Source: Candidatus Nomurabacteria bacterium (GTDB lineage: Bacteria > Patescibacteriota > Minisyncoccia > Phycocordibacterales > UBA9973). Taken from it: a stretch of DNA of 64,000 nt. Both the position numbers and the translations under genes were made by a program. Location of the stretch: contig JAHFNS010000002.1 of NCBI GenBank assembly GCA_023267215.1, positions 128,892-192,891 on the forward strand, read 5' to 3'. Shown here one piece after another: positions 4,005 to 40,965 of the stretch (position 1 is its first letter; each line of letters opens with the position of its first letter). The notes under the pieces were generated by a model, which saw only the letters and a list, made by a program, of their open reading frames with translations, was not told the origin of the DNA and ran no database searches.

Positions 4005-4676
4005 TTACCTCACCCCTTTGCCCCTCTCCTTATTAAGGAGAGGGGTTGGGGAGAGGTTCTTCTCTATTAAATACTTTTTTCCATGACCAACAGTAATATT
4101 TATCGGCACACCTGCTTTACACAAAGGACAATCCTCGGCAGAATATGTCGGTATGTAAAGATCAGAAAGTGCCCCAAAAGGCACTTTAAAAATATCTATA
4201 TCCAAATCTTTATTTTTATTTACCAAAGCACAAGCTCCAATAATGTTTCCACCAGCATTTTTTACCGCTTCTATAACTTTCAAAACAGACCCACCAGTAG
4301 TGACAATATCTTCAACTATCAAAATATTTTTATTATCTTCTACATATTTTTCATATCCACGAGTAAAAATTTGTTTACCCTCAAGACTTTTTTCAGTATA
4401 TATTCCTAAAACTTCCTTACCATACATTTCACTTAAATGCCCTGCGACATATTGAGAAAGAATAATTCCACCCAAAGCAGGACCCACAACCACTTCAATA
4501 TTTTTATCTTTATATTTTTCTGCTAATATTTTACATATTTCAGAAGTTTCTTTTGTATGTGGATATAAAAAATCTTTATTTACATAAGTGTCAAAATGTA
4601 ATCCTGAAGTACCCACAAAATGCCCCTTCGGTAATATCGCTCCAACTTTATTTAAAATATCAAGAATTTCATTCAT
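4005..4676 (-). CDS. pyrE: Orotate phosphoribosyltransferase
   Basis: PRTase PRPP-binding motif ILIVEDIVTTGGS. The C-terminal 17 aa are encoded by a palindromic repeat element (see repeat copy A). Confidence 0.85.
   Translation of the reverse strand: MNEILDILNKVGAILPKGHFVGTSGLHFDTYVNKDFLYPHTKETSEICKILAEKYKDKNIEVVVGPALGGIILSQYVAGHLSEMYGKEVLGIYTEKSLEGKQIFTRGYEKYVEDNKNILIVEDIVTTGGSVLKVIEAVKNAGGNIIGACALVNKNKDLDIDIFKVPFGALSDLYIPTYSAEDCPLCKAGVPINITVGHGKKYLIEKNLSPTPLLNKERGKGVR
4007..4058. repeat. Palindromic repeat element copy A (CCTCACCCC box + CCCCTCTCCTT/AAGGAGAGGGG hairpin)
   Basis: ACCTCACCCCTTTGCCCCTCTCCTTATTAAGGAGAGGGGTTGGGGAGAGG. It overlaps the pyrE 3' coding end and supplies a GGTGAGG SD-like sequence 8 nt before the pyrF ATG. 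Confidence 0.7.
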
Positions 4677-4680
4677 AATT

Positions 4681-5766
4681 TTATATTAACTTTTCTTTTA
4701 TCTCTCTTGCAAGATATGGGTTCCACATTGCCCCCGTAGCAGACATTACGAAATCTGCTCCTGCTTTTCTGTATTCAAAAAAATCTTCTGGTGTCATCAC
4801 TCCTCCAACACCAATAATTGTAAAATTAAATCCAAATTCTTTTCTTAATTCCTTTAACCTTTTCACCATATAAAGTCCTGCCCATTTTATCGCATGTCCA
4901 CAGATTCCACTACGAAGTCTCCCCTTACCGGGTAATGCTTGGTTCCCATTTTCATCTACAACTTCTGCAGCAATGGTATTAATAGCAGATATTCCCTGCA
5001 CAATATTACCAATCTTTTTCACAAAATTCTTTAATTCCTCAATGTCAGCAAAATATCCAATTTTTATAATTAATGGAATATTTCCAATCACTTCCTTAAT
5101 AGCTTGTGCTACTAATACTGAACGATCAGTATCATAACAAAGTAAATTATTTGTACCTTCATTGGGACAACTTAAATTTACTTCCATCACTTGCACACCT
5201 GTATCTTTTAAAAACTTGGCAGTGATACGATAATCATTAATATATTCTTCTACACTCTGTCCATTTTTCTTGGTCCCTTGAAATGCACCAACTACAATTT
5301 GTCCTGATTTCGCATATTTTATTACTTCTATTAAATCTTTCTGCCAAAAAGTTGGTTCAAAAGAAGGAACTCCAAATGAATTAGTTATAGAGAAAGGTTC
5401 CTGATAATCCCTATTCGCAACTAATTTACTTTGTGCTTTTTCTATTGTTAAATCCCCATTAATTTTTACTGATAAAATATTGGGCCATAAGTGACAAGGA
5501 TATTTCTCACTTCTAACAGTTTTATAAGTAACAATATCAAAACCCTTATCAAGTGCTGCTTTTACAAAATTACCATTAATAAGCGGACCAGCTGGAATAC
5601 CAAAGGGTGAATTTATTTTAAAACCTAAAAAATCATAAAGACGGGAAGGGCTCTCCTTCCCATTCTGGGAAGAAAAGTCCTTCCCGTCAGCAAATGCACC
5701 AAAAGGTCCATTTTTTAAATTTTCTTCATAAGATTTTTCTGGATCATAAAATGGAGTGTAAAGCAT
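4681..5766 (-). CDS. pyrD: Dihydroorotate dehydrogenase (class 1-like)
   Basis: GIPAGPLING, NLSCPN and flavin-binding C-terminal motifs (GVGGV); sits between pyrB and pyrE. Confidence 0.85.
   Translation of the reverse strand: MLYTPFYDPEKSYEENLKNGPFGAFADGKDFSSQNGKESPSRLYDFLGFKINSPFGIPAGPLINGNFVKAALDKGFDIVTYKTVRSEKYPCHLWPNILSVKINGDLTIEKAQSKLVANRDYQEPFSITNSFGVPSFEPTFWQKDLIEVIKYAKSGQIVVGAFQGTKKNGQSVEEYINDYRITAKFLKDTGVQVMEVNLSCPNEGTNNLLCYDTDRSVLVAQAIKEVIGNIPLIIKIGYFADIEELKNFVKKIGNIVQGISAINTIAAEVVDENGNQALPGKGRLRSGICGHAIKWAGLYMVKRLKELRKEFGFNFTIIGVGGVMTPEDFFEYRKAGADFVMSATGAMWNPYLAREIKEKLI
5640..5688. repeat. GC-rich nested palindrome inserted in frame in the pyrD 5' region
   Basis: 10-bp inverted repeat GACGGGAAGG/CCTTCCCGTC flanking an inner CTTCCC..GGGAAG palindrome; encodes DGKDFSSQNGKESPSR in the pyrD N-terminal region. 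Confidence 0.5.
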
Positions 5767-35608: not shown

Positions 35609-36283
35609 CTAACGTTTTATAATTAATTCCTCTTCCAGAGTTTCTTTTTTTAAATTTTCTACAATTTTTTCTGCCACAAATTCTGGTTCCATATAATTTT
35701 TATAATCTACTGGTTTTGTTTTCCCAAAAAAATCTGTTTGCATGCCTGCTGGATATGCTGCAATTACAGAAATATTTTCCATACTTAAAGTCTTGCGAAG
35801 CAATTCTGTAAACCCTCGTACTGCCCACTTGCTCGATGAATAAATAGAAGAAAGAGGGCTCGGATCAAAAGCTCTTGAGGAAATTATATTTAAGATAGTT
35901 CCAAATTTTTGTTTCTTCATATATTTAATTACTGAACGAGAACCAAAAAAAGTTCCAAAAAAATTAACCTCCATAACCTCATGTGCTAAAACAGAATCAA
36001 TTTCTTCAATAGACACATGCTCCATACCAATACCAGCATTATTAATCCAAATATCTATTCTGCCAAATTGAGTAACTACTTTTTCTGCCAAACTTTGTAA
36101 TTCATTCTCTTTCGTCACATCTACCTTTATTCCTAAAATACCTTCCTCTAAATTTATGAATTCACTTTCATCTCGTGAGCAGACAATAACTTTCGAACCC
36201 TCTTTTAAAAAACAAGAAGCCATAGCTTTCCCTAAGCCCTTTGACCCTCCTGTAATAACTACTATTTTATCTTTTAGTTGCAT
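35609..36283 (-). CDS. Short-chain dehydrogenase/reductase (SDR)
   Basis: VVITGGSKGLGKA Rossmann motif, NNAG, and a YxxxK catalytic region. Confidence 0.8.
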   Translation of the reverse strand: MQLKDKIVVITGGSKGLGKAMASCFLKEGSKVIVCSRDESEFINLEEGILGIKVDVTKENELQSLAEKVVTQFGRIDIWINNAGIGMEHVSIEEIDSVLAHEVMEVNFFGTFFGSRSVIKYMKKQKFGTILNIISSRAFDPSPLSSIYSSSKWAVRGFTELLRKTLSMENISVIAAYPAGMQTDFFGKTKPVDYKNYMEPEFVAEKIVENLKKETLEEELIIKR

Positions 36284-36302
36284 AATTTGATTTTAGCATT
36301 TT

Positions 36303-37112
36303 TTAACCTCTTTGCCTGTTAATTTCAGAAACAACAATAGAGGTAGCCACGGCGACATTGAGCGAACTAGCTGAACCTTGTATTGGTATTTTGACCATAT
36401 CATCTGCCAAATCTTTATATCCAGCACTCAAACCCCATTTTTCATTTCCTGCTAAAAGAATAACGGGGGCTTTAAAATTATATTCATAGATAGAATATTT
36501 TCCATTCTCATCGGTACCAACAACTTTTAATTCTGGATATCTTATTTTCATTTCTTTTATCCAAGGCTCAAGTTCTTTTTGAGAAGGAAGCCGTACAATG
36601 GGCAGTGAGAATAAAGAGCCCGTCGTAGCACTTATTGTTTCTGGGTCATAAAGGTCCACAGCATGACCCGTAATGATTAGTCCATCAACCCCCAGAGCAT
36701 CACAAGATCGAACAATTGTCCCAAGATTGCCTGGACTTGAAGGTCTGTCAAAAACAACTATCAGTGGAATATTTTTAATTTTTATTTTATTTAAACCATC
36801 TTTAGGTATTTCCGATAGTGCAAGCAATTCAGAAGGTTCTTCTTTATTGCTTAACTTTTTTAAAAGTTCGATAGAAAGATCATAATGTGTTTCGGCCTTT
36901 GAATTCTTTAAAATATTTTTTGCCCAATCAGATAAACCTTTCTCTGATGAATAAAAGAAGGATTTGATTTCCCAATTATATTTAAGAGCATTATTTACAT
37001 TACGAACACCTTCAAAAATAAAACCTTCATGATTTCTCTTTTCTCTGTTTGTTTTCAATGCATTCAAAATCTGAAATTGTGCATTTTCTTTTCCGATTTT
37101 TACTACTTTCAT
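36303..37112 (-). CDS. SpoU/TrmH-family RNA 2'-O-methyltransferase
   Basis: PGNLGTIVRSCDALGVDGLII and SLNVAVA motifs of the SPOUT class. Confidence 0.75.
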   Translation of the reverse strand: MKVVKIGKENAQFQILNALKTNREKRNHEGFIFEGVRNVNNALKYNWEIKSFFYSSEKGLSDWAKNILKNSKAETHYDLSIELLKKLSNKEEPSELLALSEIPKDGLNKIKIKNIPLIVVFDRPSSPGNLGTIVRSCDALGVDGLIITGHAVDLYDPETISATTGSLFSLPIVRLPSQKELEPWIKEMKIRYPELKVVGTDENGKYSIYEYNFKAPVILLAGNEKWGLSAGYKDLADDMVKIPIQGSASSLNVAVATSIVVSEINRQRG

Positions 37113-37138
37113 AAAATTTAAATAAACATTACCTCAAG

Positions 37139-37223
37139 TGCGCGGGAGAGGATTCGAACCTCCATGCCCTTGCGGGCGCTACCACCTCAAGGTAGTACGT
37201 CTGACCAGTTTCGCCACCCGCGC
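37139..37223 (-). tRNA. tRNA-Leu (anticodon GAG), class II with long variable arm
   Basis: Hand fold: acceptor GCGCGGG/CCCGCGC, anticodon stem CTACC/GGTAG, loop TTGAGGT, variable-arm hairpin GCCC-GCAA-GGGC, T-arm GGAGG-TTCGAAT-CCTCT. No encoded CCA. Confidence 0.8.
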
Positions 37224-37224
37224 A

Positions 37225-37905
37225 TTATTTTGTCAAATATTTCCTTTGTTGTTTCTTTTCTATCTCTAAAGCTCTTTGTATTTTGAGCTTCTTTCTTGAT
37301 AAACAAACAACTTTCTGATTATAGTACATTTTCTTTATTACTTCCATCGCTTCTTTTTTGCCATATTTCAACTGAAAAGTACGTCCCCTGCCGTCTTTCC
37401 CAATATGACCAAAAACACCAACTCTACTTTCTAATTCTTCTCTTAGCCAATCAATATGTTTTTTACTCGCAGAAACAAATTCTAAATAAAACATATGACT
37501 TGAACGCCACCTTGGATCCCAATATGAATAAAAACATCCATCTCCGTCAAAACACCCCCTTAAAAAATCAAAAAAATATTTACTAGGAATTTTTAACTTT
37601 CCCATTGTCAATGACTTTTTAGGAGTTAAACCAATAGACAAAAGAAAATCATAAAATATTCTATTCTTAAATTGAATCCTCAAACATTCATCCCCTTTTA
37701 AATTCCATTTATTTCCTATCTTAAAGTTTACCCCTACACACTTGGAAAAATTTAGTAATTGCTCCCTGTCCTTCGAGGTTAAATCGACTAGCAGGCCATC
37801 ACTTGATAAACATCCATCTGTAGCAATTAAACCTATTGCATAGGCTAAATTCCCATTCCAGGTTTCATTTATAATTCTTTTTGGTTCTGGTCCTCTCTTC
37901 CCCAT
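37225..37905 (-). CDS. LAGLIDADG homing endonuclease (double-motif), free-standing, abutting tRNA-Leu
   Basis: Two dodecapeptide motifs: LAYAIGLIATDGCL and FLRGCFDGDGCF. The stop codon is 1 nt from the tRNA 5' end. Confidence 0.75.
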   Translation of the reverse strand: MGKRGPEPKRIINETWNGNLAYAIGLIATDGCLSSDGLLVDLTSKDREQLLNFSKCVGVNFKIGNKWNLKGDECLRIQFKNRIFYDFLLSIGLTPKKSLTMGKLKIPSKYFFDFLRGCFDGDGCFYSYWDPRWRSSHMFYLEFVSASKKHIDWLREELESRVGVFGHIGKDGRGRTFQLKYGKKEAMEVIKKMYYNQKVVCLSRKKLKIQRALEIEKKQQRKYLTK

Positions 37906-37954
37906 ATGAATATTATATCACCTCAAGTACATAGCGTCTACTAATTATTACCAA

Positions 37955-37986
37955 CATAAAAATCCACCGAGAGAGTGGATTTTTAT
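37955..37986. terminator. Bidirectional terminator hairpin (rplS side)
   Basis: ATCCAC-CGAGAGA-GTGGAT flanked by an A-run and a T-run. Confidence 0.55.
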
Positions 37987-38007
37987 GTTTTGCTTTTTAT
38001 AATTTTT

Positions 38008-38409
38008 TTATTTTTCTGTTTTTTCCACTTCTACCTCCTCGTCAGCAACTGAGACAACAGAACGTAATTTTCGGCGGACATCTTTTACTGCTTTAACTCG
38101 TACATAATATAGTTTTGATTTACGAGCTCGAGATTTCTTAGTTATTTCAATTTTATCAACAGCTGGAGAATAAAGTGGAAAGATTCTTTCTACGCCTACA
38201 CCTGAAGCTATTCTGCGAACGGTGAAAGTCGCACCGATTTCTGTACCATGTTTGCGAGCAAGAACGATACCTTCAAAAGCCTGCAGACGTGTCTTCCCTT
38301 TTTCATCTAAGACTTTGGACCAAACACGAATAGTATCTCCTGAATTGAAATCAAGCTTCCCTCTGTCTTCAACATTTACTGAAGTAAGTTTTGTTTTATC
38401 TATTTTCAT
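38008..38409 (-). CDS. rplS: 50S ribosomal protein L19 with C-terminal extension
   Basis: SGDTIRV...RLQAFEGIV...GVERIFPLYSP core. The ORF track extends to a TTG at 38448, but the MKIDKTK Met at 38409 fits the L19 N-terminus. Confidence 0.85.
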   Translation of the reverse strand: MKIDKTKLTSVNVEDRGKLDFNSGDTIRVWSKVLDEKGKTRLQAFEGIVLARKHGTEIGATFTVRRIASGVGVERIFPLYSPAVDKIEITKKSRARKSKLYYVRVKAVKDVRRKLRSVVSVADEEVEVEKTEK

Positions 38410-38452
38410 AACAGTTTTTAATCTAACATAAACCAATTCTAAAGGCAAATTA

Positions 38453-38496
38453 ACTCACCTCACCCCTAAGCCCCTCTCCTTGTAAAGTAGAGGGGT
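38453..38496. repeat. Palindromic repeat element copy B (intergenic)
   Basis: ACTCACCTCACCCCTAAGCCCCTCTCCTTGTAAAGTAGAGGGGT. Confidence 0.65.
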
Positions 38497-38504
38497 ATTA
38501 AAGA

Positions 38505-40208
38505 CTAGGCAAATTCCTGTTGATAGCATTTCACACAATAAACTATCTCTGGTCCATCTGGGGCATAAGGTGTATAAATGTTTATATTACATTTTGCACA
38601 GGTTCTATGATACATTTTAGGTTTTGTCATTCTCTCAAATCTTTCATTTTCTCTGCATTTAGGACATTCATGTGGGACTGGTAAATTCATCTTACGAAGT
38701 AAATCTAATTCTCCTTTTACTATTTTGTATCCATTTTTACATTTTTCACATTCAATTATCTCATCCAAAACTTTTTCATCTATATCTTTTATTGTATCTG
38801 GCAAAGAATCTGTTTTCTTTGTAGTTTTATAAATTGTGCCTTCTCTGTCTTCCCAAAAATAACCCTCTTCTAAAACTTCTCCCTTTGTTTTTGGAAAAAA
38901 TTTAATTGCATTTGATTTATTGTATGGGAACTTACTAAATTCCGGTGGAAAAAATTCTCCATAGTAAAATTTCCGTCCAAGCTTGTCTATGTATGGATTC
39001 TTTTTCATATCTTCAATAATTTTATCTCTGAGTTTTTCATATTCCTCTTTTGTATACTCTTTATTTAAAATACAGTATTTTTTTCTTTTTAAATTTACAC
39101 AACCAAAATTATTTTTACCAGTGATATTCCATGAACAGTATTGCAAATCCAAACTCTCTGACCAACAATAATTGGAGAATAATATTAGATTGGTGCCCTC
39201 TCCTACTCCCGTACTTTCATAAATTTGGCTTACATTGTTTCCCCAACCAGAATAATCCCAGCAATCTTTAGCTGACGGGACAGTAATAAATTGAGTCCAT
39301 TTACAATCTTCGGCACCACCAACCATATAAACTTCCTTTGAATTTTTAGAACTGTAAACATCTTCACCTGTCACATTTAAATTTTTTGAGTTTCCATTAT
39401 ACTCTCTATATGGCAAGGTATTCCAAAACTCATGTACTTTCTCTTTAAGAGACTGTAACGACATCCAAGAATCAAGTTTCAACTCTTTGACTTTTTCTTG
39501 ATATTCTTCTTTTGTGTACTTAATATTAAAAATATAATAAGAAGCACCTCGCAGATTTACACATCCAATACAATTAGTGCAACTTGAACAATTGCGAGAA
39601 AACCATACATTCACACAATCACGACATTCATATGAGAAAAAAGTTTGATAACTTTTATTAACCCCAACACATTCATAACATAATTCTGAATAAAACCCTC
39701 GTAAACAATCTAAACTCGATTTTAGATTATTTAATAATGAGGAATAGTAGACATTCTCACAATAATCTGCCCAAAAAGTTAAATAGCAATCTTTAGACCA
39801 CCCTATACCATTAGAATATTCGGAATTCTTTATAGTTAAATGATCTGCTTCAAGAAGAGCAAAAGGAGTTTTATCAAAAAGTTTTTTTAATTGTTCTAAA
39901 AAGGGTTTGCTTGGATCATAATCCATTGCGTATTCTGTCCCATCCCAACTATCTCCCCACCAACAAGTCGGGCAATAACCTATCACTTCTTTATCTGGTG
40001 GATAAACAGAAACAGATCTAGCTCCACATTTATCACAATTGCGCCAATATAGATTCCAAGTATTCTGAAAAGAGATACGTCTAATAAATCGACATTCCGG
40101 ACACCAAGTCGGAGGAGGCACCTTCATTTTTTCATAAAAATTAAAATCCTCCGGCTCAATTGTGAAGTCTTGCTTACAGTTCTGGCAATTTCTAACTTCA
40201 GTTTGCAT
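38505..40208 (-). CDS. Cysteine-rich protein with multiple CxxC zinc-ribbon-like motifs and an internal duplicated module
   Basis: 567 aa. There are 4 CxxC pairs at each terminus and two internal repeats ending ..C.NL(R/K)...Y.I.N..YTKEEY(Q/E)K. Function unknown. Confidence 0.5.
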   Translation of the reverse strand: MQTEVRNCQNCKQDFTIEPEDFNFYEKMKVPPPTWCPECRFIRRISFQNTWNLYWRNCDKCGARSVSVYPPDKEVIGYCPTCWWGDSWDGTEYAMDYDPSKPFLEQLKKLFDKTPFALLEADHLTIKNSEYSNGIGWSKDCYLTFWADYCENVYYSSLLNNLKSSLDCLRGFYSELCYECVGVNKSYQTFFSYECRDCVNVWFSRNCSSCTNCIGCVNLRGASYYIFNIKYTKEEYQEKVKELKLDSWMSLQSLKEKVHEFWNTLPYREYNGNSKNLNVTGEDVYSSKNSKEVYMVGGAEDCKWTQFITVPSAKDCWDYSGWGNNVSQIYESTGVGEGTNLILFSNYCWSESLDLQYCSWNITGKNNFGCVNLKRKKYCILNKEYTKEEYEKLRDKIIEDMKKNPYIDKLGRKFYYGEFFPPEFSKFPYNKSNAIKFFPKTKGEVLEEGYFWEDREGTIYKTTKKTDSLPDTIKDIDEKVLDEIIECEKCKNGYKIVKGELDLLRKMNLPVPHECPKCRENERFERMTKPKMYHRTCAKCNINIYTPYAPDGPEIVYCVKCYQQEFA

Positions 40209-40212
40209 AGTA

Positions 40213-40965
40213 TTATTTTAACACCTCTATAAACTCTTTGGGTAGTGGTGATTCAACTTTTATTATTTTTCCTTTCAAATCTTTAAAGACAATAGATTTA
40301 GCATGTAGGGCCAATCTATCTATACCTTTAGGAGAGGGGTGCCCTCCATTATAAAGTGAATCACAAACTACTGGATGATTTATAAATTTCATATGCACTC
40401 GAATCTGATGTGTACGACCCGTTTTCGGACGCACTTCTAAATAAGTAAATTTAGCCCCCTCTCCTTTAGAAGGAGAGGACGGGGGTGAGGTAAATCTTTT
40501 CAAAACAGTATATTCAGTGATAGCTTCTCGAAGTTCCCCTCTCGCCCCACGTCCTGCTAACCTTTTACGAAAATCATTTCCACTTCGTCCAATTGGTTTT
40601 CTTATAGTTCCTCTATCATTTTTCATAGAACCTAAAACAATTGCATTATAAACTTTTTTTATTTCTCTTCCTTTAAATTGTTCTTTCAAAAATTCATAAG
40701 CTTTTTGATTCTTTGCTAAAAGTAAAACACCAGAAGTATCTTTATCTAGGCGATGTACTATACCTGGACGAGGAAGAAGCTCAAAAAATTTATCGTCATT
40801 TTTTATCTTAATTGGTTCTCCAACATTTTTTGTTTTAGGATAATTTTTTAAAAACCAATCAGAAATTGTTTTTTCTTTACTTCTACCATCTGGATGCACC
40901 GAAACACCAGAGGGTTTATCTATGGCTAAAATATTCGAATCTTCATAAAGTATTTTAATTTTCAT
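40213..40965 (-). CDS. RluA-family pseudouridine synthase carrying an in-frame repeat insertion
   Basis: NILAIDKPSGVSVHP and HRLDKDTSGVLLLAKN catalytic motifs; TGRTHQIRVH. A 14-aa TSPPSSPSKGEGAK segment is encoded by repeat copy D. Confidence 0.8.
   Translation of the reverse strand: MKIKILYEDSNILAIDKPSGVSVHPDGRSKEKTISDWFLKNYPKTKNVGEPIKIKNDDKFFELLPRPGIVHRLDKDTSGVLLLAKNQKAYEFLKEQFKGREIKKVYNAIVLGSMKNDRGTIRKPIGRSGNDFRKRLAGRGARGELREAITEYTVLKRFTSPPSSPSKGEGAKFTYLEVRPKTGRTHQIRVHMKFINHPVVCDSLYNGGHPSPKGIDRLALHAKSIVFKDLKGKIIKVESPLPKEFIEVLK
40453..40494. repeat. Palindromic repeat element copy D (reverse orientation, in frame inside the RluA-family gene)
   Basis: GCCCCCTCTCCTTTAGAAGGAGAGGACGGGGGTGAGGTAAAT is the reverse complement of the family consensus. 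Confidence 0.65.

Follow-up and report, generated by a model that had tools for sequence, protein, structure and literature searches.

Introduction

The locus described here raises the question of why a gene for a LAGLIDADG protein stands directly in front of an essential tRNA gene, and whether it is a mobile element at that site or a working part of the host. It was found in a stretch of 64,000 nucleotides from a Candidatus Nomurabacteria bacterium (contig JAHFNS010000002.1, positions 128,892 to 192,891), the whole of which is called the window in this text. The DNA of the window is AT-rich. Close matches to its proteins are found in metagenome-assembled genomes of Paceibacteria and Nomurabacteria, which belong to the candidate phyla radiation. 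In our study, the open reading frame (ORF) upstream of tRNA-Leu(GAG) is read as part of a mobile cassette with a free-standing LAGLIDADG homing endonuclease, whose target is probably the tRNA-Leu(GAG) gene itself, and this reading of the sequences is considered likely. The cassette is about 730 bp long and is made up of a promoter block and the ORF, placed between the rplS terminator and position +1 of the tRNA in a subset of the ultra-small Paceibacteria. The features on which the argument depends are as follows.

37225 to 37905, minus strand: free-standing double-motif LAGLIDADG homing endonuclease gene, as judged from its Pfam LAGLIDADG_3 match; 226 aa, coordinates including the stop codon
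37912 to 37946, minus strand: 35-nt fragment derived from tRNA-Leu(GAG) and doubling as the cassette promoter, and a possible operator (promoter scan, conservation and tRNA alignment)
37138 to 37223, minus strand: intact tRNA-Leu(GAG) (ARAGORN; 47.7 bits with the Rfam tRNA model)
37953 to 37989, no strand assigned: intrinsic terminator hairpin of rplS with A and T runs on its flanks (terminator scan)
38008 to 38448, minus strand: rplS, encoding ribosomal protein L19 (Pfam Ribosomal_L19, E 6.4e-31), which is conserved as the left flank of the site

Read along the minus strand, a Cys-rich zinc-finger ORF comes first, followed by rplS, the terminator hairpin, the LAGLIDADG ORF, tRNA-Leu(GAG) and a SpoU-type methyltransferase gene. 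A preliminary description of this DNA had placed an ORF with both dodecapeptide motifs (AIGLIATDGCL and LRGCFDGDGCF) at 37225..37905, with its stop codon 1 nt from the tRNA 5' end. Coordinates and motifs were confirmed, and base 37224 alone was found to lie between the stop codon and the tRNA.

Occupied and empty sites among related genomes

The distribution of the ORF was followed in two samples. The first comprised 72 species-level genome loci retrieved through the ORF itself (44-82% identity), whereas the second comprised 80 metagenome loci chosen through alignment of the neighbouring L19 protein, in which counts were made among the loci with enough downstream sequence. In this second sample, 47-49 loci are empty, that is, rplS is followed by tRNA-Leu(GAG) 15-407 nt further on and there is no ORF, and 12 loci are filled with the ORF or the promoter block. 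Ten of the filled loci carry a full-length or nearly full-length ORF adjoining the tRNA, one is cut by the end of its contig and in the last one the contig ends just after the block. Only a C-terminal relic is left next to the tRNA in two rplS-sampled loci, L138 and L146 (E 1e-9 and 1e-6, respectively). Decayed copies were also found, with a frameshift (L072 and L143), an in-frame stop codon (L033) or an N-terminal truncation (L062).

A hairpin like the rplS terminator of the window follows rplS in most loci, and one near-identical terminator is common to empty loci (L075, L077, L081 and L084) and ORF-bearing loci (L002, L004, L006 and L010). Near-identical terminators are followed either by about 16 nt and then the tRNA, or by about 8 nt and then the promoter block, the ORF and the tRNA. 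The gene is intergenic and, at the same site, present in some genomes and absent from related ones, which is the distribution that defines a free-standing homing endonuclease; the series of empty, filled, decaying and relic sites is what a homing endonuclease gene with a fixed site would be expected to produce. Since all these states share one site, the invasion of the tRNA locus by a homing endonuclease cassette, which had been offered earlier as one of two alternatives, stands; the comparison of the tRNA-Leu(GAG) locus across relatives, proposed at the same time, has revealed both the presence and the absence of the ORF. Moreover, the tRNA is a resident of the site and not its cargo, because the empty sites already have it at the same place after rplS.

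The loci sampled through the ORF had given a different impression. In 69 of the 72, tRNA-Leu(GAG) lies on the same strand immediately downstream of the ORF, the exceptions being two contig ends and one odd tRNA call; the gap between the ORF stop codon and the tRNA is 0-25 nt across the related loci (1 nt in the window). The rplS/L19 gene is upstream of the ORF in 67 loci and trmD in 54. For the same genome pairs, the mean pairwise identity is 61% for the ORF, 59% for L19 and 53% for TrmD, and the divergence of the ORF correlates with that of the host (rho 0.43), the two host genes giving rho 0.47 against each other. A universal ORF with no empty sites had been named beforehand as the finding that would speak against invasion, and in these loci it seemed to be the case. 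The idea of a universally conserved, domesticated core gene was dropped as ascertainment bias after the rplS-sampled loci proved to be mostly empty. Retrieval through the gene of interest had suggested universality and retrieval through a neighbouring gene overturned it, which is a lesson for sampling.

On a distance tree of L19, presence and absence of the ORF are interleaved, and the nearest neighbour has the same state in only 65 of 121 cases. Parsimony on this tree gives 29 changes, against a mean of 37.7 with shuffled labels. Further, the divergence of the ORF is compressed in comparison to the host genes, with relatively divergent copies in close hosts and relatively similar ones in distant hosts, and this hints at transfer of the gene between hosts.

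The endonuclease protein

The protein scores 29.9 bits against Pfam LAGLIDADG_3 (PF14528), above the cut-off of 22.5, and its catalytic aspartates are D30 in the first motif (AIGLIATDG) and D122 in the second (LRGCFDGDG). At E <= 0.001, 3,723 proteins were retrieved as homologues, and identity to the query was 71-100% in the best 120. When a profile of 50 homologues was compared with the PDB, the best match was I-Tsp061I, an archaeal rRNA-intron enzyme (2dch, E 2e-5), and I-CreI, I-DmoI and I-AniI were matched more weakly by the same profile. The AlphaFold model (predicted local distance difference test, pLDDT, 81.7; predicted template modelling score, pTM, 0.82) has two alpha-beta-beta-alpha-beta-beta-alpha repeats and an additional basic C-terminal helix formed by residues 203-225. 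Foldseek places this model with E-DreI, I-Tsp061I, I-AniI and I-DmoI (probability 1.00, E 1e-7 to 1e-5, template modelling score 0.5-0.6). Neither D30 nor D122 varies in any of the 74 intact homologues, and the ratio of non-synonymous to synonymous divergence (dN/dS) is 0.07-0.2 for close, less saturated pairs of intact copies. Because of the Pfam, PDB, AlphaFold and Foldseek matches together with the invariant aspartates, the protein can be said to have kept what an active endonuclease needs in fold and catalytic residues, and its intact copies are under purifying selection at the amino-acid level.

A group I or other intron of the tRNA was considered and rejected, as there is no Rfam intron match and the tRNA is uninterrupted, whereas the ribozyme core of a tRNA group I intron would interrupt it, usually in the anticodon loop. 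The Rfam scan of 36000-39000 at E up to 1 returned the tRNA only and no intron or ribozyme model. The gap of 0-25 nt between ORF and tRNA and the distance of typically about 16 nt from the fragment to the ATG leave no room for a ribozyme. The ORF is also separate from any host gene, so that residence in a self-splicing intron or an intein, which is usual but not obligatory for LAGLIDADG homing endonucleases, is not seen here.

The tRNA-derived promoter fragment

The 35-nt block upstream of the ORF (37912-37946) is present in about 60 of the 72 genome loci; in the rplS-sampled ORF-bearing loci it was found in 8 of the 10 with a readable upstream region, and in L103 as well. Its consensus is AATTGGTAGACGCTAyTACCTTGAGGTGATATAAT-N6-ATG. 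When aligned with positions ~14-43 of the canonical empty-site tRNA-Leu(GAG), this consensus matches at 28 of 30 positions with one gap, caused by one extra T, and none of 2000 shuffles reached the score. The spacer from GTAGAC to CTTGAG is 8 nt in all 57 fragments examined versus 7 nt in all 113 functional tRNAs. Judged from these alignments, the real direct repeat of the locus is about 30 nt long and flanks the ORF only, with the fragment as its upstream copy and the 5' half of the intact tRNA as its downstream copy.

The fragment is also where the promoter of the cassette was located. In the window, a -35 element TAGACG (37935-37940) is followed by a 17-nt spacer and an extended -10 element TGATATAAT (37912-37920); the sigma-70 promoter scan gave 10 of 12 matches plus the TG before TATAAT, and the ATG lies 6 nt past the -10. 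The spacing TATAAT-N6-ATG recurs in 35 of 55 loci. Such a short and recurrent distance implies a leaderless or nearly leaderless mRNA, predicted to start at or very near the ATG. Where the loci are more divergent, TTGAG takes the part of the -35 and the -10 sits 17 nt downstream of it; there, too, the segment TTGGTAGACGCTAT has been conserved though it lies upstream of the promoter hexamers, and GGTAGACGCTA is conserved even where the -35 has shifted downstream in this way. Conservation of the block hence extends over two promoter geometries.

Compared with the D-arms of the adjacent functional tRNAs, the fragment has varied less, and it does not follow the tRNA variant of its own genome, which argues for separate selection on the fragment and not for gene conversion. 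Concerted evolution keeping the fragment like the resident tRNA was ruled out on the same grounds. No further copies of the block, which would have been the sign of a regulon, were found in the window within 3 mismatches. The fragment is probably also a non-cleavable operator of the endonuclease or a homology arm for repair.

A related arrangement was seen in one ORF-free locus. L090 (1725-1798) has a degenerate copy of the 5' half of its own tRNA-Leu, 74 nt upstream of the functional tRNA, in which positions 1-17 are exact and are followed by ACGCACTAC...GGTAGTGCG. It echoes the fragment-plus-tRNA layout and might have been left behind when a cassette was lost or a break repaired.

tRNA alleles and the presumed target

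From the D-loop to the 3' side of the anticodon stem, the tRNAs of empty sites are strikingly uniform (GAAACTGGTAGACGCACTACCTTGAGGTGGTAG). Within one change of this canonical sequence are 23 of 48 empty-site tRNAs versus 0 of 61 ORF-bearing ones (Mann-Whitney p 1.4e-8, kinship being ignored); in the ORF-bearing genomes, the minimum is 2 and the median 7 changes. The ratio by which diversity is raised in ORF-bearing genomes is 1.69 for the D-arm and about 1.4 for the anticodon stem, with about 1.1 for the acceptor and 0.72 for the T-arm, so that the excess is confined to the D-arm and the anticodon stem. This pattern is correlative, and it fits an enzyme which would cut the canonical tRNA gene and carriers which would hold resistant alleles. 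The data point to a target of about 22-30 bp within AACTGGTAGACGCACTACCTTGAGGTGG, for which natural resistant variants and a built-in candidate operator would be at hand; monomeric LAGLIDADG endonucleases are characterized by double-strand cleavage at specific sites of 14-22 bp.

In the window and in its closest relative, L153, the tRNA equals a common empty-site allele (L077 type) in the region from the D-loop to the anticodon arm, except for one extra C in the D-loop. Four ORF-free loci (L078, L102, L144 and L149) have non-canonical tRNA-Leu alleles of the ORF-bearing type, 11-12 changes from the canonical sequence, and this is the state expected after loss of the cassette from a resistant allele.

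Expression of the cassette and the tRNA

RNase P cleaves precursors at the tRNA 5' end, which in this locus nearly coincides with the end of the ORF. The tRNA would most simply be co-transcribed with the ORF, because the gap between them is 0-25 nt, a terminator lies upstream of the cassette and no internal promoter is evident. A separate tRNA promoter in the 3' end of the ORF was considered and rejected: there is a TTGACA 8 nt before the tRNA but no usable -10 after it. This consensus TTGACA (37231-37236, minus strand) comes from Leu-Thr codons near the end of the ORF and recurs in several loci, L153, L070 and L072 also among them.

The LAGLIDADG ORF lacks its own stop codon in about 11 related loci, where it reads in frame into the tRNA (...KKY|ARVL*). 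Most of these ORFs are closed by a TAA or TAG around the D-loop, after 4-9 codons within the tRNA; the loci include L005, L010, L011, L021, L032, L041, L055, L056 and L069 (ORF 3' ends, locus positions ~4650-4700), and in L021 no stop codon appears within the ~30 nt shown. In such loci, processing by RNase P would leave a non-stop mRNA, which could limit the expression of the endonuclease.

Proposed mechanism

In the proposed mechanism, the enzyme would attack empty alleles at their canonical tRNA-Leu(GAG) gene, cutting it in the region of the D-arm and the anticodon arm, and the break would be repaired from a filled allele, by which the cassette would be copied in (intronless homing). Filled genomes would avoid self-cutting by two means: the functional tRNA gene would have diverged, as with the extra D-loop C of the window, and the upstream fragment would escape through its 1-bp insertion. 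The fragment would serve as promoter, and probably also as non-cleavable operator or homology arm. The ORF and the tRNA would be made as one transcript, and the RNase P cleavage at the tRNA 5' end would set the 3' end of the mRNA.

A more far-reaching version is put forward tentatively, and we regard it as possible rather than probable. Here the cassette would be a self-contained homing unit, in which a frozen, 1-bp-shifted copy of the target provides promoter, operator and universal left arm, the intact tRNA provides the right arm and the 3'-end signal, and the pressure of the endonuclease drives compensatory evolution of the D-arm and anticodon stem. If true, it would amount to an arms race between a selfish nuclease and an essential tRNA gene in cellular chromosomes across Paceibacteria.

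Alternative explanations

A domesticated LAGLIDADG protein with a host function, such as a sequence-specific DNA-binding regulator or a nuclease which acts on the tRNA-Leu(GAG) operon via the conserved tRNA-like operator, vertically inherited and repeatedly lost in some lineages, would account for several of the findings: the ORF is as conserved as L19 and TrmD (61, 59 and 53%) with divergence that correlates with the host, purifying selection is strong and residues are invariant, the upstream block is conserved beyond the needs of a promoter, and a tight linkage to an essential tRNA has been conserved. However, a core gene of benefit to the host is not expected to be missing from roughly 80% of the sampled relatives, and most of the rplS-sampled ones are without the ORF, some of them with an L19 closer to that of the window than many ORF-bearing genomes have. 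Frameshifted, truncated and relic copies exist as well. The catalytic aspartates are kept, although known domesticated scaffolds such as WhiA have lost them; the ORF gave no WhiA match in Pfam, and it has neither the universal vertical presence nor the loss of catalytic residues by which a WhiA-like host factor would be recognized. Domestication is thus judged to be unlikely. The block might instead be conserved purely as a promoter, if the endonuclease gene is no longer mobile and is kept only since its promoter drives the essential tRNA-Leu(GAG). Such a role is suggested by the good -35 and -10 in the block, by the rplS terminator upstream of it and by the position of the tRNA 0-25 nt after the ORF in ORF-bearing alleles with no separate promoter evident, but it leaves the purifying selection on the amino acids and the invariant catalytic residues unexplained. 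The conservation of GGTAGACGCTA despite the shift of the -35 to TTGAG also speaks against it, and the relic loci show that the ORF can be deleted with the tRNA kept; we consider this explanation improbable.

The remaining alternative concerns the 9-bp direct repeat with which the preliminary description had flanked the module, and which it had read either as a target duplication or as fortuitous. According to it, the ORF and the tRNA together would have been transposed into ACCTCAAGT, leaving a 9-bp target-site duplication. The two copies are the following.

37920 to 37928, plus strand: upstream 9-mer, the part of the fragment derived from the anticodon loop; on the minus strand it reads ACTTGAGGT (family consensus CCTTGAGGT)
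37131 to 37139, plus strand: downstream 9-mer, a chance match outside the element

Both copies were found where they had been reported, at both flanks and nowhere else in the window, which is the point in favour of transposition. The chance frequency had correctly been put below one, as 0.51 matches of this 9-mer are expected in the window and 8 of 100 shuffles give at least two. As an argument this fails, because 737 pairs of exact 9-mer direct repeats with a spacing of 500-1000 nt occur in the window, so that some 9-mer flanking any 800-bp module is to be expected. After the tRNA, the downstream 9-mer is found in none of the other loci compared (about 70 related ones), and L153, with 95% amino-acid identity, has the 9-mer at neither flank. 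The repeat is without statistical weight and its downstream copy is a chance match. Fortuity, however, holds for this downstream copy alone, as the upstream copy lies within the conserved 35-nt block. The close variant noted earlier in the anticodon stem-loop of the tRNA is present too (ACCTCAAG at 37184-37191), and the upstream 9-mer resembles that stem-loop because it is part of the conserved copy, about 30 nt long, from the D-loop to the anticodon arm. Moreover, the tRNA is already resident at empty sites, no transposase was found with the module, and LAGLIDADG homing proceeds by double-strand-break repair and makes no target-site duplications. A transposed module is therefore very improbable, and the reading of the repeat as a target duplication has been abandoned.

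For the homing endonuclease cassette itself, the following points weigh against our interpretation. A gene long inherited vertically and lost repeatedly would fit about as well as one that often homes horizontally, because the ORF is as conserved as L19 and TrmD and tracks the divergence of the host; recent horizontal transfer was not demonstrable through low synonymous divergence, since synonymous sites are saturated among the species representatives. The L19 tree has only 123 columns. The contrast between the tRNAs ignores kinship, and its ORF-bearing and empty sets come from different collections. The tRNA of the window is only 2 changes from the canonical sequence, and the target model fails if the D-loop insertion does not block cutting. 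No phage vector came to light in IMG/VR, where relatives reach only <=34% identity besides a few very short local matches. Finally, the target, the immunity, the operator and the co-transcription are inferred from sequence.

Neighbouring genes

The right flank of the site is variable and lies outside the element.

36303 to 37112, minus strand: SpoU/TrmH-type methyltransferase gene (Pfam SpoU_methylase)

A SpoU-type gene is downstream in only 1 other locus, and L153 has a different gene there. With the downstream 9-mer, a GAGGT comes to lie 20 nt before the SpoU start codon (37131-37139 and 37113-37137, minus strand). No Shine-Dalgarno sequence at normal distance was found for this gene, nor for its homologue in L007, and the translation initiation signals in the genome of the window may be atypical.

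On the other side, a 567-aa Cys-rich protein with many CxxC pairs is encoded between trmD and rplS (38505-40208, minus strand). Its sole Pfam match is a sub-threshold treble-clef zinc finger, and only 7 of 72 related loci have a homologue, so that the trmD-rplS operon seems to contain this gene as a second variable insertion. The rplS-tRNA junction accepts other insertions too, because in the close relative L073 (2933-4708; L19 82% identical) rplS is followed by ORFs of 481 and 91 aa and then by tRNA-Leu(GAG) 1.9 kb downstream. The order trmD, rplS, tRNA-Leu(GAG) is widely conserved (37138-40960, minus strand, in the window; L001-L152). tRNA-Leu(GAG) has G36-G37 and belongs to the substrate class of TrmD (m1G37), and the linkage of trmD with this tRNA may be functional or coincidental.

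Comparison with known systems

The closest functional analogue of the cassette is SegB of phage T4, and its closest structural relatives are the intron-encoded monomeric LAGLIDADG enzymes. SegB is a free-standing GIY-YIG endonuclease encoded in a tRNA cluster, and its recognition site includes a conserved tRNA motif (PMC2330249). With SegB and the other free-standing Seg and Mob endonucleases (PMC2330249, PMC2988022), the cassette shares a gene placed between conserved genes in a tRNA region and missing from related genomes, a recognition site in conserved tRNA gene sequence, which for the cassette is presumed, and a spread by double-strand-break repair with co-conversion of flanks, which for the cassette is proposed. 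The enzyme of the cassette is of the LAGLIDADG family, whereas theirs are GIY-YIG or HNH enzymes, and its host is the cellular chromosome of uncultivated Paceibacteria and not a phage. Further, the cassette adjoins the tRNA 5' end (0-25 nt) and carries a partial tRNA copy as its promoter. In case of I-TevI, an operator over its own promoter mimics the homing site of the enzyme (PMC2988022). The cassette likewise has a presumably non-cleavable look-alike of its presumed homing site over the promoter of the endonuclease gene, a candidate operator by its sequence, but the enzyme family is another one, and the mimic can be recognised as 30 nt of the target gene into which 1 bp has been inserted, and supplies both -35 and -10.

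From bacteria of the candidate phyla radiation, LAGLIDADG genes that reside in rRNA insertions have been reported (PMC11270868). With these and with I-Tsp061I (2dch), I-DmoI and I-AniI, the protein of the cassette shares the fold, the two LAGLIDADG helices with catalytic aspartates, the size of ~200-250 aa and, presumably, the targeting of conserved structural-RNA genes. On the other hand, the cassette lies outside any intron or rRNA insertion, has no ribozyme and leaves the tRNA uninterrupted, and its protein has only ~15-20% identity to the intron-encoded enzymes and an extra basic C-terminal helix. Integrative elements in tRNA genes which bring a replacement tRNA segment are also flanked by a partial tRNA duplicate and maintain an intact tRNA. 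Their duplicate, however, is the 3' end of the tRNA, whereas that of the cassette is a 5'-internal part (positions 14-43), and in the cassette there is no integrase and the insert is a single endonuclease gene.

A limited full-text literature search brought up no account of a free-standing LAGLIDADG gene linked to a tRNA in these bacteria. To judge from that search, the arrangement appears to be new: a LAGLIDADG cassette that is free-standing, resides on a cellular chromosome and is tied to the 5' end of the tRNA which it presumably targets, with a promoter derived from that target. The family is large, well sampled and resident on cellular chromosomes at one fixed site, and the whole homing cycle of empty, intact, decayed and relic states is visible in public metagenomes. 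Hence, it offers a tractable system for intronless homing and for endonuclease-target coevolution in uncultivated bacteria, and possibly a new meganuclease scaffold.

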